DNA of 64,000 nucleotides from an uncultured Actinomycetes bacterium (GTDB taxonomy: Bacteria > Actinomycetota > Actinomycetes > Streptosporangiales > Streptosporangiaceae). A program made the position numbers and the translations under genes. The DNA lies in assembly GCA_963734725.1 (NCBI GenBank), contig CAVTIX010000027.1, positions 14,967-78,966 of the forward strand, written 5' to 3'. Below the pieces are notes generated by a model. The model was not told the DNA's origin. It did no database searches and saw only the letters and a list, made by a program, of their open reading frames with translations. Positions 1-64,000 of this stretch are shown here, piece after piece. How positions within the stretch are numbered: the first letter of the stretch is position 1; each line of letters opens with the position of its first letter.

Positions 1-43
1 TGTACGCCGAGCGGGACTTCGACGCGCTGGAAGCCAGCCCTAG

Positions 44-506: not shown

Positions 507-515
507 ATAGCCGGT

Positions 516-5847: not shown

Positions 5848-6114
5848 GTCACCCCCAGCAACCCAGTGCACCGCGCACGACCGCCTCCGGGCCACGCTGA
5901 TACCTCGCCGGACACGCCATGCAGCCGATTTAGGCATCCTCCTACGGACGTAAAATCGCGGTCAAGCGTCCCGCGCGCCCACCGGGCTTCCGGAGCAGAA
6001 AACCGCGATCCGAAAGCTGACAGGCCGCTGTACCCTTTCCGCGGTGCGCATTCGGCAGAGCCTGCCCGGGTGGCTGTGCCTGGTGCGGGGAATTATCTTC
6101 GCTGCGGGAAAGGG

Positions 6115-17726: not shown

Positions 17727-17898
17727 GACCTCTCCTCCCGGGTGCGCGGTAGCCGACCGCCGGCCGCGGCGCGACACGGGCACCCATTCAGTAGACGTTT
17801 AACCAGCGATCGATGTTGCGCGCGACGTCAGCCATTTCCCCGATCAAGTAAGGATTTCTGATGAAGTTGGCCCGCCGGATCGATCTTGGCGCTGACAT

Positions 17899-22507: not shown

Positions 22508-22686
22508 AGCCTAATCGTAGAGGGAACTTCGCGCATGATGCCGTAGCGACACGCCAATTTTTCTGACTACGCTCTATGAGCAAATCCCGCTAAAAGCGCA
22601 GTTCAGGCTGCAACGCCTACGGAGAGCTACGGTAGGGTGAGGGACTGGCGCGGTGGCCGAGGCTCCGTTTCCAGCCCCTCCCCGTC

Positions 22687-22719
22687 GAACCGTGCATGCG
22701 GTTCTCTCGCACACGGCTC
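22687..22719 (-). ncRNA. Group II intron domain V
   Basis: The minus strand reads GAGCCGUGUGCGAGAGAACCGCAUGCACGGUUC. This is the canonical ~34-nt DV hairpin with the AGC triad at its base. It lies 11 nt after the RT stop codon. Confidence 0.8.
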
Positions 22720-22730
22720 TCCGACGTTCT

Positions 22731-24275: not shown

Positions 24276-24689
24276 CGGAGCCCGCTTCGGCCGGGGAGGG
24301 CCTCCCCAGTTCCCGCCGCCACCATCTGAACGTTCCGCGCCCCTTACGCCGGGCAGTTCCTCGCGGCTGCACTTCCAGGATCTTCGCCGCTTCCCTGGCC
24401 TTCACCGTGATTACACCGGCTCGGCACTGCCTCATCCCCTAACGACGCTGCAGGCTTCGCTTCACGCTACGGACCGCTCAGTCGCTCCCCTCCTTTGAAA
24501 GGGCTTTCGACGCTGGGCTCCGGCCCGGCCCGTTTCCAGACCAGACCGCCAGCCTGCTACCGGGCCTCCTGGCAGCTACCCGGACCGGACTTACACCGGC
24601 AGGCGACGACGAGCTTCTGATCAGGTCATGATCGCTGGACAATCACCTCCTGATGCGCTGGGCGCACGCAACTTGGGTTTAGTAGCTCG

Positions 24690-44242: not shown

Positions 44243-45283
44243 ATGGGATATGCCCTAACCCGGCTCGCCACGGGTACCTTGGGCACGGCTCGTGGGATGG
44301 AAGACCGGCGCCCGCCGGTTGTTATTCATGACGAGGCCAACGCGTGGGAGGCTGTGAACATGGTGCCGGATGGGGAGGACCTCTACCAGGTCGACCCGGG
44401 CGTGGCGAAGCTTGACCAGGGGATCCTGCTGCATTACCTGGACGGATTCATCGACGCTGGCGCGGCGGGGCGGCTGCTCACCGCGCATCTGCTGGGCAGC
44501 CTGGACCACGAGGCGGTGGCGACGTTCGACGTGGACCGGCTGATCGACTACCGGTCCCGCCGCCCGCCGATGACCTACGACAAGGATCACTGGGAGTCCT
44601 ACGACGCCCCGGAGATCGCCATCCACCAGGTACGGGACAGCGCGGGGAAGACCTTCCTGATGCTGACCGGCCCCGAGCCCGACCACGAGTGGGAGCGGTT
44701 CACCAGCGCGGTCGCGACGGTGAGCAGCCGCCTCGGCGCAGAACTCGTCCTCGGGTTCCACGGCATTCCGATGGGCGTCCCGCACACCCGCCCGCTCGGG
44801 GTGACCGGGCACGGGACCACCCCCGAGCTGGCCGCCGGGTCCCGGCCGATCGTCGACCGCCTGCAGGTGCCGGGCAGCGCGGCCTCGCTGCTGGAACTGC
44901 GCCTGGGCGAGGAGAACCGGGCCGCGGGCGGCTTCGCCGTGCACGTGCCCCACTACCTGGCGCAGGCCGCCTACCCCGCGGCGGCCGTCACGCTGCTGGA
45001 GCGCGTGACCAGGGCCACCGGCCTGGCCCTGCCCGACGAGGCACTGCGCGACGCGGCCCAGCGCACCGACGAGGAGATCGCCCGGCAGGTGGAAGGCTCC
45101 GACGAGATCAGTGAACTGGTGCAGGCCCTGGAGCGGCAGTACGACGCGTTCGTGGACGCCTCCGGCGCGGAGGGCCTGCTGGCCGAGCCGGGGGCGGAGA
45201 TGCCCACGGCCGAGGAACTCGGCGCCCAGTTCGAGCGGTTCCTGGCCGAACAGCAGGGGCGCACCGACACCCCCGAGTCCTGA
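44243..45283 (+). CDS. PAC2 (proteasome assembly chaperone 2-like) family protein
   Basis: LYQVDPGVAKLDQGILLHYLDGFIDAGAAGRLLTAHLL… and FLMLTGPEPDHEWERF are typical of actinobacterial PAC2 proteins. The start may be the internal ATG near 44360. Confidence 0.7.
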   Translation: MGYALTRLATGTLGTARGMEDRRPPVVIHDEANAWEAVNMVPDGEDLYQVDPGVAKLDQGILLHYLDGFIDAGAAGRLLTAHLLGSLDHEAVATFDVDRLIDYRSRRPPMTYDKDHWESYDAPEIAIHQVRDSAGKTFLMLTGPEPDHEWERFTSAVATVSSRLGAELVLGFHGIPMGVPHTRPLGVTGHGTTPELAAGSRPIVDRLQVPGSAASLLELRLGEENRAAGGFAVHVPHYLAQAAYPAAAVTLLERVTRATGLALPDEALRDAAQRTDEEIARQVEGSDEISELVQALERQYDAFVDASGAEGLLAEPGAEMPTAEELGAQFERFLAEQQGRTDTPES

Positions 45284-45314
45284 TCAGCGAGAACACCACC
45301 GGCGGAGGCCCGGC

Positions 45315-46346
45315 ATGCTCTTCCCCACCTCGCTCGTTGGCAGCTACCCCCAGCCGGACTGGCTGATCGACCGGGAGCGGCTGGGCCATCGCTTCCCGCC
45401 CCGCGTCCGTGCCCGGGAACTGTGGCGGGTGAGCCCGGCCTACCTGGAGGAGGCCCAGCGGGACGCGACCCTGCTCGCCATCCGGGCGCAGGAGCAGGCG
45501 GGCCTGGACATCGTGACCGATGGCGAGATGTGCCGGGAGAGCTACTCCAACAGGTTCGCCACCGCGCTGGACGGGGTGGACATCGACAACCCGGGCACGG
45601 CGCTGGACCGCAGCGGGCACCCGAACCCGGTGCCGCGGGTCACCGGGCCGATCCGGCGCAAGCACTCGGTCGAGGCCCAGGACGTGGCGTTCCTGCGCGC
45701 GAACAGTGGCAAGACCATAAAGATCACCGTGCCCGGCCCGTTCACCATGGCCCAGCAGGCGCAGAACGACTACTACGCCAGCACTGAGGAACTCGCGCTG
45801 GGGTACGCCGAGGCCGTCAACGAAGAGGTCAGAGACCTGTTCGCAGCCGGGGCGGACATCGTCCAGCTGGACGAGCCCTACCTGCAGGCGCGGCCGGAGG
45901 AGGCACGCAAGTACGGCGTGGCCGCGCTCAACCGGGCGCTCGCCGGGATCAGCGGCACCACCGCGGTGCATCTGTGCTTCGGCTACGCGGCGATCATCCA
46001 CGACCGCCCGTCCGGCTACTCGTTCCTGCCCGAGCTCGCCGCCGCCGAGTGCGATCAGGTGTCGGTCGAGACGGCCCAGTCCGGCCTGGACTGCTCGGTG
46101 CTGGCGGAGCTCAGCGGCAAGACCGTGATCCTTGGCGTGCTCAGCCTGGGGGACCACACCGTGGAGAGCGCGGATGAGGTGGCTGCTCGGGTGCGGCGCG
46201 CGCTGCCCTATGTCCCCGCCGAACGCCTGGTGCTGGCGCCCGACTGCGGGATGAAATACCTGCCCCGCGACGTCGCGTTCGGCAAGCTGACCGCGATGAC
46301 CCAGGCCGCCGCCCGGCTGCGCGCCGAGCTCGGCTCCTCCTCCTGA
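45315..46346 (+). CDS. Cobalamin-independent methionine synthase (MetE C-terminal domain-like) family protein
   Basis: GGAGG lies upstream of the ATG at 45315. MLFPTSLVGSYPQPDWL…, DIVTDGEMCRESY, VHLCFGY and LAPDCGMKYLPRDVAFGKL (zinc-ligand contexts) are present. Confidence 0.8.
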   Translation: MLFPTSLVGSYPQPDWLIDRERLGHRFPPRVRARELWRVSPAYLEEAQRDATLLAIRAQEQAGLDIVTDGEMCRESYSNRFATALDGVDIDNPGTALDRSGHPNPVPRVTGPIRRKHSVEAQDVAFLRANSGKTIKITVPGPFTMAQQAQNDYYASTEELALGYAEAVNEEVRDLFAAGADIVQLDEPYLQARPEEARKYGVAALNRALAGISGTTAVHLCFGYAAIIHDRPSGYSFLPELAAAECDQVSVETAQSGLDCSVLAELSGKTVILGVLSLGDHTVESADEVAARVRRALPYVPAERLVLAPDCGMKYLPRDVAFGKLTAMTQAAARLRAELGSSS

Positions 46347-51824: not shown

Positions 51825-52505
51825 GTGACGACCAGCCGATCAGCAGATGAGATAACCGAGGCGAGGCGGCGGCCGCGAGGCGCCGTCCGCGACGGCCTGG
51901 TCGCCGCCGGGCTCGACCTGGCCCGGACCGGCGGCCCGGACGCCGTCGTGCTACGCGAGGCGACCCGGATGGTGGGCGTGGTGCCTAACGCCGCCTACCG
52001 GCACTTCGCCGACCGGGACGAGCTCCTCGCCGCGGTCTGCACGGCGGCCATGGGCGTGCTCGCCGCCCGCATGGCCGCTGGCGTCGCCCGCGTGCGCGGC
52101 AAGCACGGCGACGCCGCGGCCGCCCGCCGCCGGCTGCGCGCGATCGGCACGGCCTACCTGGAATTCGCTCGCGAGGAACCTGGGTTGTTCGCAACCGCGT
52201 TCGCGCTACCGCAGCGGCACGCCTACGACGCTCCAGGCGAAGGGACCGGGCAGGACCGCATGCCCCTGGATCAGCTGCGCGCCGTCCTCGACGAGCTGGT
52301 CGATGCTGGCGTGCTCCACGCCCAGCGCCGCGACGGCATCGAGTACCCCATCTGGTCCATGGTGCACGGGCTGGCCGTGCTCACCGGGCAAGGGCCCCTG
52401 CGCGACGTCCCCGACGCCACCCGCCATCACCTCGAGAAACTCATGCGCGCCTTCATCGAGGGAGGGCTTGCCTGCGCTGGCGGTCAGGCGCCGGGGCGGG
52501 CGTAG
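51825..52505 (+). CDS. TetR-family transcriptional regulator
   Basis: The N-terminal HTH is LVAAGLDLARTGGPDAVVLREATRMVGVVPNAAYRHFADRDELLAAV. 226 aa. Confidence 0.85.
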   Translation: MTTSRSADEITEARRRPRGAVRDGLVAAGLDLARTGGPDAVVLREATRMVGVVPNAAYRHFADRDELLAAVCTAAMGVLAARMAAGVARVRGKHGDAAAARRRLRAIGTAYLEFAREEPGLFATAFALPQRHAYDAPGEGTGQDRMPLDQLRAVLDELVDAGVLHAQRRDGIEYPIWSMVHGLAVLTGQGPLRDVPDATRHHLEKLMRAFIEGGLACAGGQAPGRA

Positions 52506-54157
52506 ACCACGGCGCCGTCCACCAGGGTCAGGTCCACCTCGGCCAGCGCGATCTCGGCTGCGGGCTGGGTGAACAGGTTGCGGTCGAGCACCACGAGATC
52601 GGCCCGTTTGCCTGGCTCTACCGAGCCCGCGTCCCGCTCATCGTGGTTGACGTAGGCCGAGCCCATGGTGAACGCGGCGATCGCGGCGGGCAGGCCGATC
52701 CGCTCGTCGGGCAGGAACGGCTCGTCGGTCTCCGGGCCGCGGAACGGGTACTCAGGCGAGGTGGTCCGGTTCACCGCGGTGTGCATCTGCCACATCGGGT
52801 TCGGGCTGGAGACCGGCCAGTCGCTGCCGAAGCACAATTGCGCGCCGGAGGCGGCCAGGCTGCCGAACGGGTACTGCCACGCGGACCGCTCCGGGCCGAG
52901 GAACGGCAGGGTCAGCTCTGTCATCTGCGGCTCGTTGCTGGCCCACAGCGGCTGGCAGTTCGCCAACACCCCGAGGTCCCGGAACCTGGGCACGTCGTCG
53001 GGGTGGATGACCTGCAGGTGCGCAATGTGATGCCGGCCTGCTGTGGGCCCGTTGGCCGCGCGGGCGGCGGCGACCGCGTCCAGCGCCTCCCGGACCGCGC
53101 GGTCCCCGATGGCGTGGATGTGCACCTGGAAACCCTGGGCGTCGATGGCCGTGACCGCCTCCTTCAGCTCCTCCGGGTCGAAGAAGCTGGTGCCCCGGCC
53201 CTCCGTCTCGTGCCCGTGCCCATCGAGGTAGGGGGTCAGCATCGCGGCGGTGAAGTTCTCGCAGACGCCGTCCTGCATGATTTTCACGCTGGAGGCGCGG
53301 AACCGGGACCCGCTAGCGATGGCGCGTCGTTCGGCAAGAGAATCGAGCTGGGACAGCCCAGCCCCGCGCCGCCACCAGAGGGCGCCGGTGACCCGGGCGG
53401 TCAGCAGGCCCCGGCCCTCGACCTCGCGGAAGGCGTCGAAGCTGTCGGGAACCACCGCGTATTCGCCGACGATCGCCTCCTGCCAGGCGGTGATGCCGAG
53501 CGAGTGCAGGTACCGCTGGCCCTCCAGGACGCCGGTCACCCGCTCGGCCAGCGTGACCACGGGCAGCATCCGCTGCACCAGGTTCATCGCGCCCTCGTGC
53601 AGCGAGCCCTGCGGCGCCCCGGTCGCGGTGCGCTCGATCCGGCCGTCCGGCGGGTCCGGGGTGGCGGCGTCGATGCCGGCCAGCGCCAGCGCCCGGGAGT
53701 TCACCCACGCGCCGTGGTGGTCCCGGTTGGACAGGAACACCGGCCGGTCGGGCACCACCTCGTCGAGGTCCTTCTTGCTGGGCACGCCGCGGGGGAACAC
53801 GTCCATCCCCCATCCGCCGCCGGTGATCCATTCGGCGCCGGGATTGCGGTCGGCGTAGGAACGGATCGCCGCCAGGTAGCCCTCCCGGGTGTGCTCGCTG
53901 GTCAGGTCGCACTGGCCGCGCTCGAGGCCGCCGCCGGAGGCGTGCACGTGCGCGTCCTGGAAGCCGGGCAGGACCATCCGCCCGCGCAGGTTCACCACCT
54001 CGGTGCGCGGGCCCACGTGCGGCCGCATCTCGGCGTCGGCGCCCACCGCCGCGATCCGGCCGCCGGAGACGGCCACGGCCTGTGCCCAGGTCCGCGCGGC
54101 GTCCACCGTGTAGACGGCGCCCCCGGTGAGCACCAAGTCGGCCGGGCGCTCAGCCAT
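52484..54157 (-). CDS. Amidohydrolase-3 (YtcJ-like) metal-dependent hydrolase
   Basis: MAERPADLVLTGGAVYTVD…LPGFQDAHVHASGGG…HIHAIGD…HIAHLQ…FGSDWPVSSPNP. Its start lies 3 nt after the MttB-family gene's stop. Confidence 0.85.
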   Translation of the reverse strand: MAERPADLVLTGGAVYTVDAARTWAQAVAVSGGRIAAVGADAEMRPHVGPRTEVVNLRGRMVLPGFQDAHVHASGGGLERGQCDLTSEHTREGYLAAIRSYADRNPGAEWITGGGWGMDVFPRGVPSKKDLDEVVPDRPVFLSNRDHHGAWVNSRALALAGIDAATPDPPDGRIERTATGAPQGSLHEGAMNLVQRMLPVVTLAERVTGVLEGQRYLHSLGITAWQEAIVGEYAVVPDSFDAFREVEGRGLLTARVTGALWWRRGAGLSQLDSLAERRAIASGSRFRASSVKIMQDGVCENFTAAMLTPYLDGHGHETEGRGTSFFDPEELKEAVTAIDAQGFQVHIHAIGDRAVREALDAVAAARAANGPTAGRHHIAHLQVIHPDDVPRFRDLGVLANCQPLWASNEPQMTELTLPFLGPERSAWQYPFGSLAASGAQLCFGSDWPVSSPNPMWQMHTAVNRTTSPEYPFRGPETDEPFLPDERIGLPAAIAAFTMGSAYVNHDERDAGSVEPGKRADLVVLDRNLFTQPAAEIALAEVDLTLVDGAVVYARPGA

Positions 54158-54160
54158 CGC

Positions 54161-55612
54161 CTAGTCGCCGAGCTCGGCGCGGCGGCGGGTGACGTAGTCG
54201 GCCAGTTCCTCGCGGATGGCGTCGTCCAGCGGCGGCGGCTCGTACTCTGCCAGGGTCTTCTTGGAGATCTCGCCGGCCCGCACCGTCGCGTCCTTGCCGC
54301 CCTGCTTGAGCCACCGCTCGTAGTTGGCGGTGGAGGACAGCAGCGGCCGGTAGAAGCAGGTGCGGAACCGCTCCATCGTGTGCGCGGCGCCCAGGAAGTG
54401 GCCGCCGTGGCCCACCTCCTCGTGCGCGCCGAACGCCAGCGACGCCTCGTCAATCTCCAAGGGGGTGAACTCGACTCGCAGCATCCGCAGCAGCTCGATG
54501 TCCACGATGAACTTCTCGTAGCAGCTCACCAGGCCGCCTTCCAGCCAGCCCGCGGCGTGCATCACCCAGTTGGCGCCCGCGAGGAAGGTGGGCAGCAGCG
54601 TCATCAGCGACTCATACGCCGCCTGCGCGTCGCAGGTCTGGCTGGAGTTGAGCCCGCCGCCGGTGCGGAACGGCAGCCCGTAGTGCCGGGCGAGCTGCCC
54701 GGTGCACAACAGGCCGATCGCCGACTCGGGCGTGCCGAAGCTGGGCGACCCGGACTGCATGTCGATGTTGGAGAGAAACGAGCCGAAGATCACCGGGCAG
54801 CCGGGCCGGATGAGCTGCGCCAGCGCAATGCCAGTGAGCGCCTCGGCAAGCTGCTGCGCCAGCGCGGACGGGATCGCCACCGGCGACATCGCTCCCATGA
54901 GCAGGAACGGGGTGAGGACCACCGGCTGGTTCGCCGCGCAGTACTCGAACTGCGCGTCCAGCATCCGGTCGTCCCAGCGCAGCGGCGAGTTGCAGTTGAT
55001 CAGCGAGATGGTAGCCGGGGTCTGCTCGATCGCGGACCGGCCCTTCTCCGGGCCGCCGAACAGGATCGAGGTCATCGCGATGGTGTCGGCCGCGTTCGGC
55101 CCGGACACCACGTTGCCCATGTAGATCTTGTCGGTCAGCGTCTGCAGGGCGTAGATCATGTCGAGGTGCCGGGAGTCCAGCGGCGCGTCGTTGGGCTCGC
55201 AGATCACCCCGCCCGCCGAGTCCAGTTCGGGGAACGACTGCGCCAGCATGGCCAGGCGGTGGAAGTCGTCCAGGGTGGCGTCCCGGCGGACCTCTCCCTC
55301 GCGGATGAACGGCGAGCCGTACACCGCGCCGAACACCATGTCGTCGCCGCCGATGTGCACGCTGTTGGCCGGGTTGCGCGCCTGAACGTTGAACTCGCGC
55401 GGGGCCTTGGCTGCCTGATCCAGCACGAACTCCGGGTCGAACTTGACCACGTCGCCGTCCACCTGCTGGCCGGCTTTGCGGAACAGTTCGACCGCCTCCG
55501 GTTTGGCGAACTGCACCCCGATCTCGCTCACAATGCGGCGCCAGCCGCGGTCGAGCACCGCGACCGCGTCGGCGGAGAGGATCTCGTATCGCGGCATCGT
55601 GTTGCGGAACAT
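54161..55612 (-). CDS. MttB-superfamily methyltransferase (trimethylamine methyltransferase family, non-pyrrolysine type)
   Basis: MFRNTMPRYEILSADAVAVLDRGWRRIVSEIGVQFAKPEAVELFRKAGQQVDGDVVKFDPEFV… is collinear with MttB/MtgB-type proteins. The ORF is uninterrupted, with no in-frame TAG. The start is the ATG at 55612 or 55597. Confidence 0.85.
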   Translation of the reverse strand: MFRNTMPRYEILSADAVAVLDRGWRRIVSEIGVQFAKPEAVELFRKAGQQVDGDVVKFDPEFVLDQAAKAPREFNVQARNPANSVHIGGDDMVFGAVYGSPFIREGEVRRDATLDDFHRLAMLAQSFPELDSAGGVICEPNDAPLDSRHLDMIYALQTLTDKIYMGNVVSGPNAADTIAMTSILFGGPEKGRSAIEQTPATISLINCNSPLRWDDRMLDAQFEYCAANQPVVLTPFLLMGAMSPVAIPSALAQQLAEALTGIALAQLIRPGCPVIFGSFLSNIDMQSGSPSFGTPESAIGLLCTGQLARHYGLPFRTGGGLNSSQTCDAQAAYESLMTLLPTFLAGANWVMHAAGWLEGGLVSCYEKFIVDIELLRMLRVEFTPLEIDEASLAFGAHEEVGHGGHFLGAAHTMERFRTCFYRPLLSSTANYERWLKQGGKDATVRAGEISKKTLAEYEPPPLDDAIREELADYVTRRRAELGD

Positions 55613-55706
55613 CGCCACCTGCCTCTTCCGGCTGACCCCGGGGCGGCTTGGTACCCGGCCGATGCGGCCTTGACCAGCTAAGACCCCGATCGTAGGATCA
55701 CATAGT

Positions 55707-55732
55707 AGAACAGAGTTCCGCAACGTGGAACT
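55707..55732. promoter_or_regulatory. Overlapping GAAC/GTTC palindromes at the iclR start, candidate operator
   Basis: The sequence reads GAAC-aga-GTTCC-gcaacgt-GGAACT. AGTTCC (55714-55719) and GGAACT (55727-55732) form a 6-bp inverted repeat spanning the GTG at 55725, within the mttB/iclR divergent region. Confidence 0.4.
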
Positions 55733-56828
55733 AGGTAGCGGCTATCGCAGGAACCCAACTGGCAGGCGCGTGGTGAGCAGTCGAGGCGGAACCCAGGCGG
55801 TGGACCGGGCGGCACGGCTGCTCACCGAGGTCGTGCACGCGCCCGGGGCGGTCACGTTCACCGAGCTTGCCGCGGCCACCGGCCTGGCCAAGAGCACCAC
55901 CTCGCGGCTGCTGCTGGCGCTGGAGCGCAACGGGCTGGTCCGCCGCGACGACGCGGGCCGGTTCCGGCCCGGGGAGATGTTCGTCCGGTTTGCCTGGCGC
56001 GGCGGCGCCGAGGCGGGGCTGACCGAGGTCGCCCAGCCCTGCCTGAACCAGCTCGGCCGGGACACTGGCGAGACCGTGAACCTGGGCGTCGGCCGGGACG
56101 GCGTGGTCGAGCAGATCGCCCAGGTGGACAGCGTGTATGTGATCGGCGCCACGAACTGGCTGGGCCGCGCGGTCCCGCTGCACTGCACGGCGATCGGCAA
56201 GGTCCTGCTCGCCTACGGCGCGGCGAAGCTGCGGCCCGGCCGGCTGGAGCGGCGCACCGAGCAGACCATCACCAGCCGGGCGGCGCTGGAGGCCGAGCTC
56301 GCCGCGGTACGGCAGCACGGCTACGCGGTCATTGACGGCGAACTCGAACCGGGGCTGGTGGCGGTGGCCGCCCCGGTCTACCGTGACGGCGGCGCCGTGG
56401 TCGCCGCCCTGTCGGTGTCCGGCCCGGGCACCCGGCTGACCCCGCCGCGGATCGCCGGCGTGGCAGCCGCGTGCATGGCGCAGGCCAGCGCGCTGTCCGC
56501 CGTCCTGGGCCACCGGCCGGAGCGCCCGGCGCATGGGAACGGCGCGCCGCGCCTGGCGCGGCCGGCCTCGGCGCGGCGGGCGCCGCAGCCGGGGCAGCGG
56601 CCCCAGGCACCGCCGGCAGCCCAAGCACCGCCGGCAGCCCAAGCACCGCCGGCAGCCCAAGCACCGCCGGCAGCCCAAGCACCGCCGGCAGCCCGGGCCC
56701 GGCCGGCAGCCCGGGCCCAGCCGGCCGCTTCAGCTCAGCCGACAGCGCAAGCCCCGCAAGCAGCCCGGGCCCGGCAAGCAGCGCAAGCCCCGCAAGCAGC
56801 CCAAGCACAGAGAGAAGGTGCCGCGTGA
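55725..56828 (+). CDS. IclR-family transcriptional regulator with a ~110-aa Ala/Pro/Gln low-complexity tail
   Basis: AVDRAARLLTEVVHAPGAVTFTELAAATGLAKSTTSRLLLALERNGLV (wHTH) plus an IclR effector domain up to about 56490. The frame then stays open through (APPAAQ)n to the TGA at 56826-56828. Confidence 0.8.
   Translation: MELGSGYRRNPTGRRVVSSRGGTQAVDRAARLLTEVVHAPGAVTFTELAAATGLAKSTTSRLLLALERNGLVRRDDAGRFRPGEMFVRFAWRGGAEAGLTEVAQPCLNQLGRDTGETVNLGVGRDGVVEQIAQVDSVYVIGATNWLGRAVPLHCTAIGKVLLAYGAAKLRPGRLERRTEQTITSRAALEAELAAVRQHGYAVIDGELEPGLVAVAAPVYRDGGAVVAALSVSGPGTRLTPPRIAGVAAACMAQASALSAVLGHRPERPAHGNGAPRLARPASARRAPQPGQRPQAPPAAQAPPAAQAPPAAQAPPAAQAPPAARARPAARAQPAASAQPTAQAPQAARARQAAQAPQAAQAQREGAA
56607..56696 (+). 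repeat. 18-bp tandem repeat GCACCGCCGGCAGCCCAA, 4 perfect copies plus 1 partial
   Basis: Copies start at 56607, 56625, 56643, 56661 and 56679. Related degenerate units continue to about 56815. The region is open in all three forward frames. Confidence 0.9.
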
Positions 56829-57490
56829 CACCCGACGAGCTACTCAAGCAGTTGTACGACGACACCCTGGTGGGTAACGGCCCCTCGGTGCTTGAGCTGA
56901 CGCAGACCGGACTGGGGGTGGGCATGGGCCCGGAGACGCTGCTCTACGACGCGCTGATCCCGGCGCTGGAGGAGGTCGGCGCGCGGTTCGAGCGCGGCGA
57001 CTTCTTCGTGCCGGAGATGCTGATCGCGGGCAAGGCGATGGCGGGGGCGCTGGAGATCCTGCGCCCGCTGCTGGCCGAGACCGGCGCCGCCTCGATCGGC
57101 AAGGTGGTCATGGGCACGGTCAAGGGCGACGTGCACGACATCGGGAAAAACCTGGTGAACATCATGTTCGAGGGCGCCGGGTTCGAGGTGATCGACCTGG
57201 GCGTGCAGGTGTCACCGGAGAAGTTCATCGACGCGGTCCGCGAGCACCAGCCCGACATTCTCGGCTTCTCCGCGTTCCTGACCACGACCATGCCGATGTT
57301 CAAAGCGAACATCAACGCGCTGGAGAAGTCCGGGCTGCGCGACCAGGTGATCGTCATGGTCGGCGGGGCGCCGGTCACCCAGGAGTACGCCGACGTGGTA
57401 GGCGCCGACGGGTATGCCGCCGACGCCTCGGCGGCGGTGGTCCGCGCCAAGGAACTGCTGCAGCGGCGCCGCGCCGCGCTGCCCGCGTAA
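56825..57490 (+). CDS. Corrinoid (cobalamin-binding) protein, MtgC/MttC-like
   Basis: The GTG at 56825 overlaps the iclR stop (GTGA). There is an N-terminal B12-binding cap helix bundle, then the DxHxxG motif in VKGDVHDIGKNLV and a Rossmann-like B12 domain (…VMVGGAPVT…). A longer form starting at the GTG at 56471 cannot be excluded. Confidence 0.85.
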   Translation: MTPDELLKQLYDDTLVGNGPSVLELTQTGLGVGMGPETLLYDALIPALEEVGARFERGDFFVPEMLIAGKAMAGALEILRPLLAETGAASIGKVVMGTVKGDVHDIGKNLVNIMFEGAGFEVIDLGVQVSPEKFIDAVREHQPDILGFSAFLTTTMPMFKANINALEKSGLRDQVIVMVGGAPVTQEYADVVGADGYAADASAAVVRAKELLQRRRAALPA

Positions 57491-57501
57491 CGGCGGCCGG
57501 C

Positions 57502-58500
57502 GTGGACACCGTCCTTTCCTCGGCCAACCAGCAGATCGTGATCGGCCCCGGCCAGCCGTTCTGCATCATCGGCGAGCGGATCAACCCGACCGGGCGCAAG
57601 GCGTTCCAGGAGGAACTGCGGGCCGGCGACCTGTCCCGGGTGGAGACCGACGTCGCCCAGCAGGTCGCCGGGGGCGCCATGGTGCTCGATGTGAACATGG
57701 GCGCGCCGCTGGCCGACGAGGCAGAACTCATGGGCCGGGCGGTCCAGCTGATCCAGGGCCTGACCGACCTGCCGCTGGTCATCGACTCCTCGATCATTGA
57801 GGTCCTGGACGCTGGGCTGGCCGCCTACCAGGGCAAGGCGCTGGTCAACTCGGTCACCGCCGAGGACGACCGGCTGGCCGCGATCCTGCCGCTGGTGCGC
57901 AAGCACGGCGCCGCGGTCATCGGCCTGCCCAACGACGAGGAGGAGATCCCCGAGGAGCCGGCCCGCCGGGTCGAGCTGGCCCGCAAGATCATCGACGTGG
58001 CCACCGGGAAGTACGGCGTCGCCATCGAGGACATCGTCATCGACCCGCTCGCGATGCCGGTCGGCGCGGACACCGGCCACGGCATCCGGACGCTGGAAAC
58101 GATTGCGCTGCTCCGTGAGGAGTTCGGCGTGAACATGACGCTGGGCGCCTCGAACGTGTCGTTCGGCATGCCGGACCGGCACGCGATCGGCGCCGCGTTC
58201 CTGCCGGTGGCCATCTCGCACGGTCTGACCAGCGCGATCATGGACGCTCGCTCGCCGCAGATCGTCCGCGCGGTGAAGGCCGCCGACCTGCTGCTCGACC
58301 GAGACCCCTGGGGCGCGTCATGGATCGCCGCCCACCGCGCCCAGCAGGCCGCTGCCGCTTCGGCCACTGCCGGTTCGGCCACTGCCGGTTCGGCCACTGC
58401 AGCCGCGGAGGCGCATGCCGCCGGGGCCCCGGGGGCCGCCGCGCAGTCCCCGGGGGCCGCCGCGCAGGCCTCCGGGGCCGCCGCGCAGGCTGCGCCGTGA
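57502..58500 (+). CDS. Methyltetrahydrofolate:corrinoid methyltransferase (pterin-binding domain), with an Ala-rich C-terminal tail
   Basis: FCIIGERINPTGRKAF…LDVNMG…LVNSVT…IDPLAMPVGA…LGASNVSFGMP are hallmarks of the pterin-binding TIM barrel of MeTr/MtgA/MetH type. The tail is SATAGSATAGSATAAAE…GAAAQSPGAAAQASGAAAQ. Confidence 0.85.
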   Translation: MDTVLSSANQQIVIGPGQPFCIIGERINPTGRKAFQEELRAGDLSRVETDVAQQVAGGAMVLDVNMGAPLADEAELMGRAVQLIQGLTDLPLVIDSSIIEVLDAGLAAYQGKALVNSVTAEDDRLAAILPLVRKHGAAVIGLPNDEEEIPEEPARRVELARKIIDVATGKYGVAIEDIVIDPLAMPVGADTGHGIRTLETIALLREEFGVNMTLGASNVSFGMPDRHAIGAAFLPVAISHGLTSAIMDARSPQIVRAVKAADLLLDRDPWGASWIAAHRAQQAAAASATAGSATAGSATAAAEAHAAGAPGAAAQSPGAAAQASGAAAQAAP

Positions 58501-60392
58501 CCAGCGTCGACGGCACTGTGGCCACCGACTCCGGCGGAGCGGGGCACCCGGCCGGACCAGTGCGGGTCGACCTGGTCTTCGAGCCGGGCGGGCGGCGGGT
58601 GCGGGTGCCACACGGAGTGACCTTGTTCGACGCGGCAAGCTGGAACGGCATCGCGATCGACTCCACCTGCGGCGGGCATGGCACCTGCAAGAAGTGCAAG
58701 GTCCGGGTGCTGGACGACGGCGCGGACCCGCCGTCCGCGCTGGACGCCCGCGCGTTCACACCCGAAGAGCTGAGCCAAGGATGGCGGCTGGCCTGCCGAG
58801 CGCAGGCCCTTAGCGATGTCCGCGTTGACGTACCAGCGCTTGTCACCCGGCCGAAGGCCGCCACGGTCGGCGTCGGGCGCCAGGTGATCCTGCGGCCCGC
58901 GGTGCAAAAACGCTACTTGGAGCTGGCCGAGCCGTCGCTGAGCGACCAGGTGACCGACGTCGAGCGGGTGATCGCGGCCCTGGACGACCTGGAACTGCGG
59001 GTTGACCTGGACGTGTTGCGCACGCTCGGCCGGGTGCTGCGCGGTGCCGACTACAAGGTCACCGCGGTGGTCGTGGACGACATGCTGATCGGCGTGGAGC
59101 CGGGCGACACAACCGGCCGCCGCTTCGGCATCGCCTTCGACCTAGGCACGACCACGGTCGTGGCGACGCTGCTCGACCTGGCCACCGGGACCCCGGCCGC
59201 GGTGGCGTCCCGGCTCAACGCGCAGCAGCCGTTCGGCGCGGACGTGATCAGCCGGATCAGCGCGACCATGCTGGACCCGGCGGCGCTGGACCGGCTGCAG
59301 ACGCTGGCGCAGGAAACCCTGGCGGAGCTGGCTGCCGAGGTGTGCGCGCAGGGCGGCGCAGACCCGGCCGAGGTATACGAGGTGGCGCTGGCCGGCAACG
59401 CCACCATGACCCACCTGGTCCTCGGCATCGACCCGGAGCCACTCGGGATGGCGCCGTTCATCATGGCCACCCGGCTGTTCCCCGAGGTGCTCGCCGCCGA
59501 CCTGGGCATCGGCGTGCACCCGCGGGCCCGGGCTGTGGTGTTCCCAGCGTTCGGCGCCTACGTCGGCGGGGACATCACCGCCGGGCTGCTCGCCTCCGGG
59601 ATGGACCGGGACGCGCGGCTCCGGCTGTTCGTGGACATCGGCACCAACTGCGAGATCGTGCTGGGGAACCGGGACTGGCTGCTGGCCACGGCGGCACCGG
59701 CCGGGCCCGCGTTCGAGGGCGCGGCGATCCGGTGTGGGATGCGCGCCGCCGACGGGGCGATCGAGGTGGTCACGATGACCCCGGACGCCCTGGAACTCAC
59801 GGTGATCGGCGACGCCGCGCCGACCGGGCTGTGCGGCTCCGGGCTGGTGGACGCGGTGACCGGGCTGGTCCGGCTGGGGCTGCTCGACCCCTCCGGCCGG
59901 TTCGTGCCCGAGGAGCAGGCCGGCGCGCTGGCCCCCGGGCTGGCCGGGCGGCTGACCCGGCTCGGCGAGGAGCGGGTGTTCGTGCTGCACTGGCTCGGCT
60001 CGCCAGGCGACGTGGCGCATTCGATCTACCTGTCCCAGCGGGACGTGCGGGAACTCCAGTTCGCCAAGGCGGCGATCGCCACCGGGTGGCGGATCCTGCT
60101 GGAGGAGGCGGGCCTGGCGCCTGGCGACATCCAGCAGGTCCTGCTGGCGGGCTCGTTCGGCAGCTACCTGTCCCCGGCCAACGCGATCAGGCTCGGCCTG
60201 GTCCCGGAGATCGGCGTGCTGCGCGTGGTCAGCGCCGGGAACGTCGCGGGCGAGGGGGCCAAGATGGCGCTGCTGTCGCTGCGCGAGCGGGCCGCCGGGC
60301 TGGCGCTGCTGGAGGAGGTGAGGTATGTCGAGCTGTCCGACCGCGCCGACTTCAACGACCGCTTCGTCGCGCAACTCCCCTTCCCGGGCTGA
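58497..60392 (+). CDS. RACo-type corrinoid reductive activase (N-terminal [2Fe-2S] ferredoxin + ASKHA ATPase, DUF4445)
   Basis: The GTG at 58497 overlaps the upstream stop (GTGA). A plant-type ferredoxin Cys cluster is present (DSTCGGHGTCKKCKV…WRLAC), followed by actin-like ATPase motifs (GIAFDLGTTTVVATL, VDIGTNCEIVLG, ATAAPAGPAFEGA). Confidence 0.85.
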   Translation: MTSVDGTVATDSGGAGHPAGPVRVDLVFEPGGRRVRVPHGVTLFDAASWNGIAIDSTCGGHGTCKKCKVRVLDDGADPPSALDARAFTPEELSQGWRLACRAQALSDVRVDVPALVTRPKAATVGVGRQVILRPAVQKRYLELAEPSLSDQVTDVERVIAALDDLELRVDLDVLRTLGRVLRGADYKVTAVVVDDMLIGVEPGDTTGRRFGIAFDLGTTTVVATLLDLATGTPAAVASRLNAQQPFGADVISRISATMLDPAALDRLQTLAQETLAELAAEVCAQGGADPAEVYEVALAGNATMTHLVLGIDPEPLGMAPFIMATRLFPEVLAADLGIGVHPRARAVVFPAFGAYVGGDITAGLLASGMDRDARLRLFVDIGTNCEIVLGNRDWLLATAAPAGPAFEGAAIRCGMRAADGAIEVVTMTPDALELTVIGDAAPTGLCGSGLVDAVTGLVRLGLLDPSGRFVPEEQAGALAPGLAGRLTRLGEERVFVLHWLGSPGDVAHSIYLSQRDVRELQFAKAAIATGWRILLEEAGLAPGDIQQVLLAGSFGSYLSPANAIRLGLVPEIGVLRVVSAGNVAGEGAKMALLSLRERAAGLALLEEVRYVELSDRADFNDRFVAQLPFPG

Positions 60393-60993
60393 GGCCCCGG
60401 TCCTGGTGATCGCGTGTGGCGCCCTGGGCGCGCACCTGCGCGAGATCATCGCGCGCCGCGGCTGGCCGGCCGAGTTGCGCTGTCTTCCCGCCCTGCTGCA
60501 CAACCACCCAGAGAAAATCACCATTCATGCCGAACGACTAGCCCGGGCTGGCCTGGCCCGCGGGCAACGGGTCGCCGTGGCTTACGCCGACTGCGGGACG
60601 TACGGCGCGCTGGACAAGGTGTGTGCGCGGCTGGGGTTGCGGCGGCTGCCGGGGCTGCACTGTTACGACGTGCTGGCCGGGCCGGAGCGGATCCGGGCCG
60701 AGTTCGAGGCCGAGCCCGGCACCTACGTGCTCACCGACTTCCTGGTCCGGAGCTTCGCCAAGACCGTGCTCGCGGAGCTCGGCCTCGACCGGCACCCGGA
60801 ACTGTGGCCGGACTACTTCGGGCACTACCGCCGGGTGGTCTGGCTGGCCCAGGACCGGGACCCGGACCTGGAGGCGGAGGCGGGGCGGGTGGCGGCCCGG
60901 TTCGGGCTGCCGCTCACCATCGTGGACACCGGGACCAGCCGCCTGGAGCGGGAACTGGAGGTCCTGATCGCCGGGCAGGGTTTGTGGTCGTGA
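60325..60993 (+). CDS. DUF1638-domain protein
   Basis: VLVIACGALGAHLREII…AYADCGTYGALD…YVLTDFLVRSF… is typical of DUF1638, a family usually found beside corrinoid methyltransferase genes. The start is uncertain: ATG at 60325 (overlapping the upstream gene) or GTG at 60406. Confidence 0.7.
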   Translation: MSSCPTAPTSTTASSRNSPSRAEAPVLVIACGALGAHLREIIARRGWPAELRCLPALLHNHPEKITIHAERLARAGLARGQRVAVAYADCGTYGALDKVCARLGLRRLPGLHCYDVLAGPERIRAEFEAEPGTYVLTDFLVRSFAKTVLAELGLDRHPELWPDYFGHYRRVVWLAQDRDPDLEAEAGRVAARFGLPLTIVDTGTSRLERELEVLIAGQGLWS

Positions 60994-61012
60994 CAAACAG
61001 GCGGACCGAATG

Positions 61013-61172
61013 CCGGGGGCAGGCCGTGATCCGGGGCGAGCCGGGGACCGGGGGCAGGCCGTGATCCGGGGCGAGCCGGGGACCGGGGGCAGGCCGTGAT
61101 CCGGGGCGAGCCGGGGACCGGGGGCAGGCCGTGATCCGGGGCGAGCCGGGGACCGGGGGCAGGCCGTGATCT
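61013..61172 (+). repeat. 35-bp tandem repeat, 4 identical copies plus a diverged fifth containing the MTHFR start codon
   Basis: The unit is GTGATCCGGGGCGAGCCGGGGACCGGGGGCAGGCC. GTGs lie at 61026, 61061, 61096 and 61131, and at 61166 in the diverged copy GTGATCTGGGGCGGGCC. The period is not a multiple of 3. Confidence 0.95.
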
Positions 61173-62038
61173 GGGGCGGGCCGTTCCGGGGCGGCCTGGC
61201 CAGCGTCGCCCCGTTGCTGGAGCATCCCCGGTACGAGGTGTTCCCGGCCGATAGCGTGGCGGATGCGGTCGCGCGGTGGGTCCCACCGGGCATGACGGTG
61301 ACCGTGACCGCCTCGCCCACCAAGGGCCTGGACGCCACCCTTGACCTGACCGAGGTGCTCGCGGGCCGTGGCTACCAGGTCGTGCCGCACCTGTCCGCCC
61401 GGCTGGTCCGGGACAACGCGCACCTGGCCGACATCGCCGCCCGGTTGATCGCATGCGGGGTGGACGACGTCTTCGTCCCCGCGGGTGACGCCGACCCCCC
61501 GGCAGGCCGTTTTGACAGCGCTTTGTCTTTGCTTGAGCGACTGGCGGAAATGGGCAACCCTTTCCCGCGCACCGGCATCACCGGGTATCCGGAGACGCAC
61601 CCCAGGATCGGCGACGACATCACGATCCAGGCCATGTGGGACAAGTGTCGGCTCGCCTCCTACATCGTGAGCAACCTGTGCTTCGACCCGGCCACGGTGC
61701 GCCGGTGGATCCGCCGGGTCCGCGCGCGTGGCGTCACGCTGCCGCTGTACGTGGGGCTAGCCGGGCCGGTGGAGCGCACCCGGCTGCTGCGGATGGCGGC
61801 CAAGGCGGGCGCCAGCGAGTCGGCCAGGTTCCTCGCCGGGCATGTCGAGTGGTTCCTGCGGTTCGGCACCCCCGGCGGCTACCGGCCGGAACGACTGCTC
61901 GCCAGGCTGGCGCCCGCGGTGACCGCGTCGGCCTCCGGCGTGGCCGGGCTGCACCTCTTCACGTTCAACCAGGTCCAGCAGACCGAGGAGTGGCGGAGGG
62001 AACTGCTGGCCCGCGCGGGCGCCGCCCAGCCCGTCTAG
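61166..62038 (+). CDS. Methylenetetrahydrofolate reductase (MetF-like) family protein
   Basis: …RYEVFPADSV…VTVTASPTKGLDATL…VVPHLSARLV…FVPAGDADPP…TGITGYPETHP…IVSNLCFD…PLYVGLAGPVERTRLLRMA… are MTHFR TIM-barrel hallmarks. The GTG at 61166 is the first in-frame start. Confidence 0.8.
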   Translation: MIWGGPFRGGLASVAPLLEHPRYEVFPADSVADAVARWVPPGMTVTVTASPTKGLDATLDLTEVLAGRGYQVVPHLSARLVRDNAHLADIAARLIACGVDDVFVPAGDADPPAGRFDSALSLLERLAEMGNPFPRTGITGYPETHPRIGDDITIQAMWDKCRLASYIVSNLCFDPATVRRWIRRVRARGVTLPLYVGLAGPVERTRLLRMAAKAGASESARFLAGHVEWFLRFGTPGGYRPERLLARLAPAVTASASGVAGLHLFTFNQVQQTEEWRRELLARAGAAQPV

Positions 62039-62265
62039 ACCACGTCTAGACCCGGTGCGGCCGCCGCAAACCCGCTACGCAAGCGCTATGCGGAATCACG
62101 TGTAGTAATTGCACGGAATACAATCGCTTGCACTACGCCAGCCCGAGAGTCTCGTTTCCGGTTTTGTTCCGTGATCTGAAATGGGCGTGTATAACCGGCG
62201 TGAGGTTTGGTTGACATGACCCGGGATTGCCCCGGATACGCGCGCGGGTTGGTGGCCAGACAAGC

Positions 62266-64000
62266 ATGAGCGGGAGCCAGCTGGACGGTGGCCTGGCACG
62301 GCCGGGCACGGTGAACTGGCCGCTGCTGTCGGGCGTGATCCCGCAACTGGCGGACTCTCACATTCCCCGGCACGAGAGCGGACTCGGCCTGGCCGCCAGC
62401 CTGGCCCCCGGCGACACGGCCGTGCTCATCCCGTCCGACGAAGCGGGCCGGTCCCTCGGCGGGCTTGGCGGCACCGGCAAGACGCAGCTCGCCCTGGCCG
62501 TGGCGCATGCGCTGTGGAATCAGCGGGCGCTGGACCTGGTCGTCTGGCTGTGCCCGTCCACCAGGGACGCTGTGGTAACCGCCTACGCGCAGGCGATGCG
62601 GGATATCGGGGAGGCGGCCCACGGGGAGCCCGCGGAAAGGGCCGCCGCGCGGTTCCTCGACTGGCTGGGCGAGACCCGCCGGCCGTGGCTGGTCATCCTC
62701 GACGATCTCGCCGACGCGGCTGTGCTGGAGGGGCTGTGGCCACATGGACCGCAGGGGCGCGTGGTCGTCACCAGCCGCCGGCCCGCCACCGCGGTGCGTG
62801 CCTACCGCCCGCGCGCGGTCGAGGTGGGGCCGTTCAGCCCGCGCGAGGCGCTGGGGTACCTGTCAGCCAAGCTGCACAACGACCCCGACCAGTGGATCGG
62901 CGCCCTCGACCTGGCGGGCGACCTCGGCTACCTGCCGATCGCGCTGGCGCAGGCGGCGGCGCTGATGGCCGACACCGGCCTGGACTGCCGCCAGTACCGG
63001 GCCAGGGTCACCGACCGGATGCAGCGCCTGACCGGCGCCCCACCGGGGGCTTATCCCTCGATCGTCGCGTCCACCTGGTCGATCGGCACCGAAATGGCCG
63101 AGCAGATACCGCCGGCCGGGCTGGCCCGCCCGGCGCTGGCCCTGGTCGCGATGCTGGATCCCAACGGCATTCCCGGCGCCGTGCTGACCAGCCAGGCCGC
63201 CTGCGCTTATCTCACCCGTTACCGGCGGAGCGCCGCCGTGGATGAGGCGGAGGCCCGCGCCGCTCTGTTCAACCTGGCCCGGACAGGCCTGGTCAGCATC
63301 GATACCACCAGCGCGGCCCGGACCGTGCGGGTACACGCGCTGGTGCAGGCCACGGTCCAGCAGAACCTCACCGCCGCCGAATGCGACGAGGCGGCGCGCA
63401 CCGCCGCGGAGGCGCTGCTCCAGATCTGGCCCCGCGACGACGTCCCGCCGCTGTATGAGCAGGCGCTGCGCGACTGCACCGCGCGGCTGCATGAGATCGC
63501 GGGCCGGCTGCTCTGGACCCCCGAGTGCCACCCGCTGCTGGTGCGGGCGGGCCGCAGCCTCGAAGCGAGCGGGCTGACCGGGGCCGCCGTCGCCTACTGG
63601 CAGTCACTGCTAACCGTCAGCGAGGCCGAGCTGGGACCCGGCCATACGCACACCCTGCTGGCCCACGACCGGCTGGGCGCGGCCCAGGAGGCGGCGGGGC
63701 GCCCGGACGCCGCGGTGGACGTGTACCAGGCGGCGCTGGACGAACGGCAGCGACTGCTCGGCGCGGCCCATCCGGACACCGTCGCGGCCCGCGCTAACCT
63801 CGCCCGCGCGTACCGGGAGGCAGGCCGGGCCCAGGAGGCGGTCAGCCTCGCCGAGCGCGTTCTCGCCGAATCTGAGAAGGGCAGGGGGACCCGGCACCCG
63901 GACACCCTGGCCGCCCGCGGCGACCTGGGCGAGGCCTATCTCGAAGCGGGGAAAAGCGACCAGGCCATCACCGCGTTCCAGCAAGCCCTGGCCGGCCGGG
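62266..64000 (+). CDS. STAND NTPase (NB-ARC-like P-loop domain + TPR repeats), partial; runs off the window
   Basis: Translated by hand from the ATG at 62266, with no stop to the window end (so it is absent from the ORF track). Walker A GGLGGTGKTQLA, Walker B RPWLVILDDL and GYLPIALAQAA are present. TPR units follow (HTHTLLAHDRLGAAQEAAGRPDAAVDVYQAALDERQRLLGAAHPDTVAARANLARAYREAGRAQEAV…). Confidence 0.75.
   Translation, partial: MSGSQLDGGLARPGTVNWPLLSGVIPQLADSHIPRHESGLGLAASLAPGDTAVLIPSDEAGRSLGGLGGTGKTQLALAVAHALWNQRALDLVVWLCPSTRDAVVTAYAQAMRDIGEAAHGEPAERAAARFLDWLGETRRPWLVILDDLADAAVLEGLWPHGPQGRVVVTSRRPATAVRAYRPRAVEVGPFSPREALGYLSAKLHNDPDQWIGALDLAGDLGYLPIALAQAAALMADTGLDCRQYRARVTDRMQRLTGAPPGAYPSIVASTWSIGTEMAEQIPPAGLARPALALVAMLDPNGIPGAVLTSQAACAYLTRYRRSAAVDEAEARAALFNLARTGLVSIDTTSAARTVRVHALVQATVQQNLTAAECDEAARTAAEALLQIWPRDDVPPLYEQALRDCTARLHEIAGRLLWTPECHPLLVRAGRSLEASGLTGAAVAYWQSLLTVSEAELGPGHTHTLLAHDRLGAAQEAAGRPDAAVDVYQAALDERQRLLGAAHPDTVAARANLARAYREAGRAQEAVSLAERVLAESEKGRGTRHPDTLAARGDLGEAYLEAGKSDQAITAFQQALAGR

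Follow-up and report, generated by a model that had tools for sequence, protein, structure and literature searches.

A conserved cluster for corrinoid-dependent methyl transfer in uncultured soil actinobacteria, with glycine betaine as its likeliest methyl donor

What would an actinobacterium whose neighboring genes look aerobic do with a complete gene set for corrinoid-dependent methyl transfer, and which methyl donor would that set serve? The question is raised by a cluster at positions 52484-62038 of a 64,000-nt stretch of contig CAVTIX010000027.1 (assembly GCA_963734725.1) from an uncultured member of the Streptosporangiaceae; we call the whole stretch, which has ~70-73% G+C, the window. 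An earlier interpretation made from the letters alone (the sequence-only reading) had proposed that the cluster, built around a pyrrolysine-free MttB-family enzyme, demethylates a quaternary amine or other N-methyl compound to give methyl-tetrahydrofolate (methyl-THF). Family matches, conservation of the cluster, and betaine-catabolic genes found beside it in relatives all support this core proposal. We consider it likely that the cluster serves catabolism under IclR control, removing a methyl group from a quaternary amine, most probably glycine betaine, and that in actinobacteria it corresponds to the MtgBCD/MetF2/RamA/DUF1638 system known from Ruegeria pomeroyi. Corrinoid-dependent methyl transfer from some quaternary amine to THF, taken in general, is very probable.

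Gene content of the cluster

Window proteins were profiled against Pfam and NCBIfam, and solved relatives were identified by sequence comparison with the Protein Data Bank (PDB). All eight genes of the cluster have family matches, a minus-strand pair being divergent from a plus-strand run of six:

52484-54157, minus strand: YtcJ-like amidohydrolase (Amidohydro_3), 557 amino acids (aa); PF07969, E 1.5e-97, full length
54161-55612, minus strand: pyrrolysine-free MttB-superfamily methyltransferase, MtgB-like, 483 aa; PF06253, E 1.8e-186
55670-55731, no strand assigned: putative divergent control region, from a consensus scan and conservation in relatives
55773-56828, plus strand: IclR-family regulator with a PAAQAP-repeat tail; HTH_IclR and IclR_C (Pfam)
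56825-57490, plus strand: corrinoid protein, MtgC-like, 221 aa; B12-binding_2 and B12-binding (Pfam), DVHDIG motif
57502-58500, plus strand: methyl-corrinoid:tetrahydrofolate methyltransferase, MtgA/MtgD-like, 332 aa; Pterin_bind, NF005719
58497-60392, plus strand: RACo/RamA-type reductive activase, 631 aa; Fer2, RACo_linker, Raco_middle, and RACo_C_ter
60325-60993, plus strand: DUF1638 protein; PF07796, E 2e-20
61166-62038, plus strand: divergent MTHFR; Pfam MTHFR 42.6 bits, PDB 7XG9 E 9e-31

The MttB stop codon (TAG) is followed by gcg and then by the ATG of the amidohydrolase, leaving a 3-nt gap, and GTGA stop/start overlaps occur at 56825-56828 and 58497-58500. These junctions, read directly from the sequence, agree with those reported by the sequence-only reading, whose placement and family assignment of the eight genes likewise hold in the profile searches of the cluster proteins (each matched its assigned family). 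Start positions are predictions for IclR, RACo, and DUF1638. For IclR an alternative start lies at 55725; for DUF1638 the ATG at 60325 overlaps the end of RACo and is an uncertain choice. A second open reading frame considered for DUF1638, at 60414-61064, has no match to that family and was rejected in favor of the 60325-60993 frame, which does. An Rfam scan of the cluster gave no cobalamin riboswitch or other RNA element, and a terminator scan gave nothing convincing within the operons.

The MttB homolog matches PF06253 with 620.5 bits over profile positions 12-500 of 500. As had been claimed, it lacks an in-frame TAG: its 483 codons are uninterrupted, and its alignment with pyrrolysine-free MtgB from Desulfitobacterium hafniense runs the whole length. 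We rejected its identification as a pyrrolysine-type trimethylamine methyltransferase, for which the corresponding model (TIGR02369, trimeth_pyl) gives 268 bits against a cut-off of 525; the pyrrolysine MttB in the PDB (7XCL) scores only 123 bits, compared with 387-420 bits for MtgB and the MttB homolog 4YYC.

The partner proteins are equally recognizable. In the corrinoid protein a B12-binding_2 cap precedes a Rossmann-type B12-binding domain, and the DxHxxG motif noted for it is present in the translation as DVHDIG; its best NCBIfam model is the "glycine betaine-specific corrinoid protein MtgC" (200.8 bits, below the cut-off of 370). The pterin-binding protein exceeds the cut-off of 259 for NF005719, a methyltetrahydrofolate:corrinoid methyltransferase domain, with 291 bits. 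The activase has all four Pfam domains of RACo in order ([2Fe-2S], linker, middle, and ASKHA), with the cysteine cluster CGGHGTCKKC in its translation, and scores 429 bits, below cut-off, with the NCBIfam AcsV-like model. By analogy with known systems, the DUF1638 protein may be a partner of the activase; in R. pomeroyi it is co-induced with RamA (PMC12478193).

Conservation of the cluster and its neighborhood in relatives

Homologs of the window MttB number in the thousands. The best 120 share 87-98% identity with it; the few of these that carry a source name come from metagenome-assembled genomes (MAGs) of Streptosporangiaceae or Actinomycetota. A scan taking one genome per species yielded 80 loci (individual loci carry L numbers below), all in uncultured actinobacterial MAGs and some cut by contig ends. 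Those named below phylum level belong to the Streptosporangiaceae, with one from the Nocardiopsaceae; they were sampled from Danish soils, Stordalen palsa, SPRUCE peat, and similar sites. Across these 80 species-level MAGs the MttB protein is 84-95% identical to that of the window, which indicates strong purifying selection.

Conservation of the whole cluster is borne out as well: in searches with the window proteins (tblastn), the divergent layout recurs in ~70 of the 80 loci. The corrinoid protein is found in 75 (84-96% identity), IclR and the pterin-binding methyltransferase in 73 each, the RACo activase in 71, DUF1638 in 64, and the MTHFR in 52.

We also predicted and clustered the flanking genes of the 80 loci and ran representatives through Pfam and NCBIfam. 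In 11 relatives (L058, L060 [2-4139], L062, L063, L067, L071, L072, L074, L075, L076, and L079) the operon is extended: the MTHFR is directly followed by an 859-aa protein with DAO, FAO_M, and GCV_T domains, the architecture of dimethylglycine and sarcosine dehydrogenases. Genes for the beta and/or alpha subunit of electron transfer flavoprotein (ETF) stand behind it in 10 of these 11. An L-serine ammonia-lyase (SdaA; 686 bits, above cut-off) is encoded downstream of MttB in nine relatives, namely, seven of the extended-operon loci together with L057 and L073. Dehydrogenase, ETF, and serine ammonia-lyase together match a route from betaine through dimethylglycine and sarcosine to glycine or serine and on to pyruvate, as in the R. 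pomeroyi proteome.

A large tetratricopeptide-repeat (TPR) protein (62215-63999, plus strand, running off the window end) lies behind the MTHFR here and in 18 relatives. It resembles the TPR protein of FxSxx-COOH systems (NF040586, 236 bits, below cut-off), and ETF genes lie beyond it in several relatives.

Direction of the folate step

The MTHFR has a weak Pfam match, yet its closest solved relative (7XG9) is clear; canonical MTHFRs from human, yeast, and Thermus match the window protein with E-values of only 1e-6 to 3e-4. An identification of 7XG9 as the mycobacterial flavin-independent MTHFR was rejected: The entry is S6MTHFR of Sphingobium lignivorans SYK-6, and the mycobacterial enzyme is absent from the PDB matches of the window protein. 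Yu et al. (Commun Biol 2025, PMC11868366) showed that S6MTHFR catalyzes methyl-THF oxidation; the enzyme defines a family, "type 4," whose members are coupled to demethylases. That the nearest solved relative is a methyl-THF-oxidizing enzyme supports the direction assigned to this step by the sequence-only reading, and the window MTHFR probably runs from methyl-THF to methylene-THF. Of the motifs specific to S6MTHFR (L48-P49, F215 with C219, and P268-F269), P49 and F269 are kept; loss of C219 or F269 reduced the activity of S6MTHFR (PMC11868366). Since these family-specific residues are only partly kept, membership of the window protein in type 4 is not established.

Proposed pathway

Modeled on the chemistry of characterized homologs of these genes, whose identities and conservation are as observed above, the pathway would begin with the MttB-family enzyme, which would bind betaine and move one N-methyl group onto the small corrinoid protein in its Co(I) state. 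The pterin-binding methyltransferase would then pass the methyl group from the corrinoid protein to THF, and the linked type-4-like MTHFR would oxidize methyl-THF to methylene-THF for one-carbon (C1) oxidation or serine formation. When the corrinoid is accidentally oxidized to Co(II), the RACo-type activase and DUF1638 would restore Co(I) with ATP and an electron. The downstream amidohydrolase is an add-on specific to one sublineage, probably co-transcribed with MttB.

Regulation appears to lie in the region between MttB and IclR. A consensus scan finds a promoter-like TTGACC-17-TAGGAT on the plus strand (55670-55698), a TACTAT box resembling a -10 element lies on the minus strand (~55704-55709), and a palindrome, GTTCCGCAACGTGGAAC, occupies 55715-55731. 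The same blocks are kept in the MttB/IclR intergenic regions of 15 out of 17 aligned relatives. From this conservation alone, the region may hold two face-to-face promoters sharing one candidate operator, the palindrome, to which IclR would probably bind. The regulator itself ends in ~100 aa of PAAQAP repeats, a tail that arises from 11.5 copies of an 18-bp unit repeated in tandem (56602-56808, plus strand); the IclR proteins of relatives are 262-278 aa long and lack this tail.

The amidohydrolase beside MttB

The amidohydrolase matches PF07969 across the entire profile (positions 1-472 of 472, 328.5 bits). By eye we recognize HxH (H70/H72), VKIMQDG, HIHAIGD, and GSDWP, motif residues that are mostly invariant among 20 homologs. 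Its best PDB matches, 3ICJ and 3IGH, are both uncharacterized hydrolases. An AlphaFold2 model built from the 20-sequence alignment, with homologs 81-95% identical, has a mean pLDDT of 51.6, too poor for a fold search. Literature listings mention the YtcJ-like family in connection with papers on Streptomyces aminoacylases and metal-dependent bile salt hydrolases.

The tight coupling of this gene to MttB had been taken as a hint that substrate or product needs hydrolysis. Comparison of neighborhoods shows the linkage to be rare when counted from the MttB side but strong, in one sublineage, when counted from the hydrolase side. Only five of the 80 species-level loci have the amidohydrolase after MttB (three adjacent, two with an EamA transporter between); elsewhere MttB is followed by one or another unrelated gene, such as one for a sigma factor, a DinB/MDMPI protein, a methyltransferase, or an RCC1 protein. 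Conversely, in all six loci that we looked up with an 84%-88% identical hydrolase, that gene stands close behind an MttB gene, and a metagenome scan places an MttB ortholog directly upstream in 11 of 11 informative loci whose hydrolase is at least 83% identical. The coupling that was noticed is thus tight within one sublineage, but the hydrolase is no general part of the module.

Details of these loci point both ways. In L083-L085 the MttB stop and the hydrolase start overlap or nearly so, while the genes beyond are PFOR-like instead of the TetR, carbonic anhydrase, and GlgC genes of the window. In L082 ~3.5 kb of other genes intervene between MttB and hydrolase. The scan also found an MttB ortholog upstream in six loci whose hydrolase is 69-73% identical, and about a dozen hydrolases of 67-72% identity with no MttB nearby. 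Hydrolases of this latter range lie behind hydantoinase A/B (oxoprolinase-type) pairs in L107 (46-4951), L110, L113-L116, and L126, with overlapping stop and start where coordinates were checked (L107, L113, and L116), and behind an aromatic amino-acid ammonia-lyase in L108 and L111; more distant ones (62-63% identity) follow amino-acid permeases. Such varied operon contexts suggest that the subfamily comprises general small-molecule C-N hydrolases. In three further loci (L118:4043-7677, L119:1982-7677, and L120:2631-7671) a 64-65% identical hydrolase is paired with an unlike, deep-branching MttB paralog located 0.4-4 kb upstream. This paralog is 28% identical to the window MttB (PF06253, 325 bits) and has MtgB as its nearest relative at just 208 bits; no corrinoid protein or activase was detected within the 6-kb flanks. 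The pairing of the hydrolase with so distant a paralog suggests that the association may recur.

In our view the amidohydrolase is an accessory gene of this lineage, probably sharing a transcript with MttB. It is quite possible, though we hold it somewhat less probable than not, that the adjacency has no functional meaning and is conserved gene order in a young sublineage: The hydrolase is missing from 75 of the 80 relatives, other genes separate the pair in L082, and hydrolases 67-72% identical to it reside in unrelated operons with hydantoinases or aromatic amino-acid lyases. This reading must accommodate the 11 of 11 loci with MttB upstream, the persistence of the pair while downstream genes change (GlgC/GT4 in some loci, PFOR-like in others), the retention of the MttB link by 69-73% identical hydrolases despite an inserted EamA transporter, and the second, independent pairing with the 28% identical paralog. 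A more ambitious suggestion, which we consider doubtful, is that the YtcJ-type enzyme is a true working partner of MttB enzymes, freeing betaine from an amide- or ureide-masked precursor or cleaving a C-N bond of the product. Hydrolase and MttB would then form a two-step route without counterpart among characterized corrinoid methyltransferase systems. We know of no characterized MttB system that includes such a hydrolase; this optional gene is the sole element of the cluster without precedent and its sole open lead.

The likely substrate

We compared the window MttB pairwise with MtgB, 4YYC, and two plasmid homologs. Identity is 42% with D. hafniense MtgB (2QNE/9YCE), 44% with 4YYC of Sinorhizobium meliloti (for which a literature search found no paper), and 47% with a Paracoccus protein. 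In MtgB, glycine betaine is bound by Y97, R312, H348, and F356, as mutagenesis and a betaine-bound structure show (Picking et al., JBC 2026, PMC13080624). Three of these four are kept in the window protein, as Y98, R316, and H352. The active-site loop reads HAAGWLEGGL in the window protein, in all five aligned relatives, in 4YYC, and in the Paracoccus protein, where MtgB has HTAGILQYF. Its tryptophan, W356 (I352 in MtgB), lies four residues before G360, is common to 4YYC and the Paracoccus protein, and may, as a conjecture, substitute for MtgB F356 as a second cation-pi partner.

From the conserved residues and the genes neighboring the operon in relatives, we rank glycine betaine as the likeliest substrate, a choice that we hold to be somewhat more probable than all others together. 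The dimethylglycine-dehydrogenase-like, ETF, and L-serine ammonia-lyase genes near the operon in relatives support it independently of the residues.

Several observations weigh against this assignment or against the wider reading. The fourth betaine-binding residue of MtgB, F356, aligns with G360, and identity to MtgB is only 42%. Although its binding residues are generic, MtgB discriminates against proline betaine (PMC13080624), so conservation of residues does not fix the substrate. No betaine transporter is seen within the 64-kb window, and the dimethylglycine-dehydrogenase and ETF genes are absent from the window, being attached to the operons of relatives with an 84-87% identical MttB. 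The NCBIfam equivalog or "exception" models for MtgC, AcsV, and MTHFR all score below their cut-offs. In the MTHFR, L48 is replaced by Ser, F215 by Met, C219 by Ala, and P268 by Thr, leaving two of six motif residues. Finally, aerobic growth of the host is suggested by neighboring genes only.

The first of these points are also what favors use of the same machinery on another substrate: proline betaine, carnitine, gamma-butyrobetaine, a phosphocholine-type compound, or something released or processed by the amidohydrolase. MttB-family members with similar basic residues do use different betaines (PMC13080624), the active-site loop differs from that of MtgB, and within its sublineage the hydrolase keeps close to MttB, overlapping or nearly overlapping it in L083-L085 despite differing downstream genes; a 64-65% identical hydrolase stands beside the unrelated paralog in L118-L120. 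Yet the betaine-catabolic genes on the orthologous operon in relatives favor glycine betaine, the module occurs without the hydrolase in 75 of 80 related genomes, and the active-site motif is identical whether or not a hydrolase is present at the locus. On balance we consider a different substrate unlikely.

A role in methionine synthesis

A different reading would see in the plus-strand operon chiefly a split, cobalamin-dependent methionine synthase of the kind known from Phaeobacter inhibens, carrying methyl groups from methyl-THF through the corrinoid protein to homocysteine, with MttB as a side input. MtgC and MtgD of R. pomeroyi do double in methionine synthesis and betaine demethylation (PMC12478193), and corrinoid proteins are thought to donate methyl groups to core methionine synthases (PMC7857596). 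At a distance of 8 kb the window holds a core-MetE-like gene (45111-46346, plus strand), whose product has Meth_synt_2 only, without the folate-binding half (PRK09121, 254 bits, below cut-off); in 20 of 80 relatives, L046 (16174-17208) among them, such a gene lies no more than 10 kb from MttB. But we think this reading very improbable, given that there is no homocysteine-binding (MtgE-type) gene within or beside the operon, that unrelated genes separate the operon from the core-MetE-like gene, that the operon MTHFR is of the oxidizing type, that an IclR regulator with a divergent, substrate-specific MttB is typical of catabolic clusters, and that a classical 1,210-aa MetH lies nearby in six relatives, so that a second synthase is not needed.

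The MetH genes (~1,210 aa) lie 3-7.5 kb downstream of MttB in L010, L014, L016, L020, L022 (16734-20366), and L028, often beside the core-MetE-like gene. Among the called window genes that we scanned against Pfam or NCBIfam, none encodes an MtgE-type (homocysteine S-methyltransferase) protein. With no MtgE nearby and a classical MetH close by in six relatives, the dual role in methionine synthesis seen in R. pomeroyi may not apply here. We think it unlikely that the cluster primarily serves methionine synthesis; a side link, by way of its corrinoid protein and the core-MetE-like protein, is conceivable.

Other features of the window

The only hints of aerobic life in the window are oxygen-using enzymes, of lysyl-oxidase-like, PhyH-like, and GSDH types. 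All of these context genes had been named by the sequence-only reading and are present:

516-2012 and 16236-17783, minus strand: two lysyl-oxidase-like proteins, ~500 aa each; weak C-terminal domain match (30-39 bits)
3538-5937: GSDH+PKD protein
15220-16071: PhyH-like dioxygenase

The window also holds a group II intron (22632-24602, minus strand), with Rfam matches to domains D1-D4 (24462-24602, 105 bits) and to domain V/VI (22632-22721, 43 bits); its open reading frame (22731-24275, minus strand) encodes a reverse transcriptase/maturase (RVT_1 and GIIM). An IS1634-family transposase adjoins the intron (20879-22507, minus strand; 292 bits, above cut-off). The product of 42136-44076 (plus strand) joins an NhaA-type Na+/H+ antiporter to a DsbA/thioredoxin-like domain at its C terminus.

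Significance

What is new here is a well-conserved actinobacterial example; the mechanism was already described in aerobes in 2025 (PMC12478193). If our reading is right, a B12-dependent, oxygen-independent first demethylation of glycine betaine, a route recognized in aerobic marine proteobacteria only in that year, is also a conserved trait of widespread uncultured actinobacteria of soil and peat. This would bear on the recycling of osmolyte nitrogen and C1 units in soils and on the demand for cobalamin there. Metagenome matches to "mttB" are often read as evidence of anaerobic methylotrophy, a practice against which the cluster cautions. Its compact organization under a single regulator would make it convenient for biochemical work.

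Comparison with known systems

The three-component logic of the window cluster, together with an ATP-dependent activase, is that of MtgB/MtgC/MtgA in D. hafniense and of the MtpB, MtcB, MtyB, and MthB systems in Eubacterium limosum. MtgB belongs to the same TIM-barrel family as the window MttB and aligns with it over the full length, with Y97, R312, and H348 kept and F356 not. In these anaerobes methyl-THF enters the Wood-Ljungdahl pathway or respiration, whereas in the window an oxidizing-type MTHFR is linked; the relatives of the window further add genes for an ETF-dependent dehydrogenase, unlike the anaerobic systems. For the amidohydrolase, we found no characterized close relative; the YtcJ-like hydrolases 3ICJ and 3IGH share with it the full-length Amidohydro_3 match and the HxH motif.

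The coupling of a demethylase that makes methyl-THF to a linked MTHFR that oxidizes it follows the same logic as in S. lignivorans SYK-6 (PMC11868366). There the partner of the type 4 MTHFR is LigM-like, whereas the demethylase of the window would be corrinoid-dependent, like CmuAB.

An uncharacterized cluster on plasmid p1 of Paracoccus methylovorus (NZ_CP070369.1) has the same divergent layout as the window: In its RefSeq annotation MttB is divergent from a B12-binding protein, DUF1638, MTHFR, methyl-THF:cobalamin methyltransferase, and an ASKHA activase. Its MttB shares the HAAGWLEGGL loop with 4YYC and the window protein, at 44-47% identity. It differs in having a two-gene MTHFR (MTHFR and a "C-terminal domain" protein) and a GlxA-type regulator, with no IclR and no amidohydrolase. 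A creatininase and an M24 metallopeptidase (possibly a creatinase) are encoded ~8 kb from this cluster (L087, record 385644-387706); they would add a further pathway for an N-methyl compound, though their proximity may be coincidence.

The closest parallel is R. pomeroyi DSS-3, whose six-part set (MtgB, MtgC, MtgD, MetF2, RamA, and DUF1638) has its match in the window cluster. When grown on glycine betaine, choline, or carnitine, it induces two pfam06253 MtgB proteins, MtgC, MtgD, MetF2, RamA, and DUF1638 (Mausz et al., PNAS 2025, PMC12478193). Betaine use is lost in mtgC and mtgD knockouts of this aerobe, MetF2 is its most strongly induced protein, with a proposed role in methyl-THF oxidation, and MtgC and MtgD also serve methionine synthesis, with MtgE (PMC12478193). 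The statement in the sequence-only reading that characterized non-pyrrolysine MttB members come from strict anaerobes is therefore outdated, the same six-part set being known from an aerobe (PMC12478193). With this partner set in aerobic R. pomeroyi, and with the Paracoccus plasmid layout, an aerobic setting such as that suggested for the window host is no longer surprising. Co-located versions occur in S. meliloti and marine bacteria (PMC12478193), and in some of the other bacteria that carry the aerobic Mtg system the genes stand beside those for later steps of betaine catabolism, as they do in relatives of the window cluster. The window MTHFR is like the type 4 enzyme of Sphingobium; its comparison with MetF2 of R. 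pomeroyi is by description only. Unlike R. pomeroyi, the host of the window is an actinobacterium, its cluster carries the extra amidohydrolase, and the parts that are scattered in R. pomeroyi are gathered here into one compact divergent cluster under an IclR regulator.

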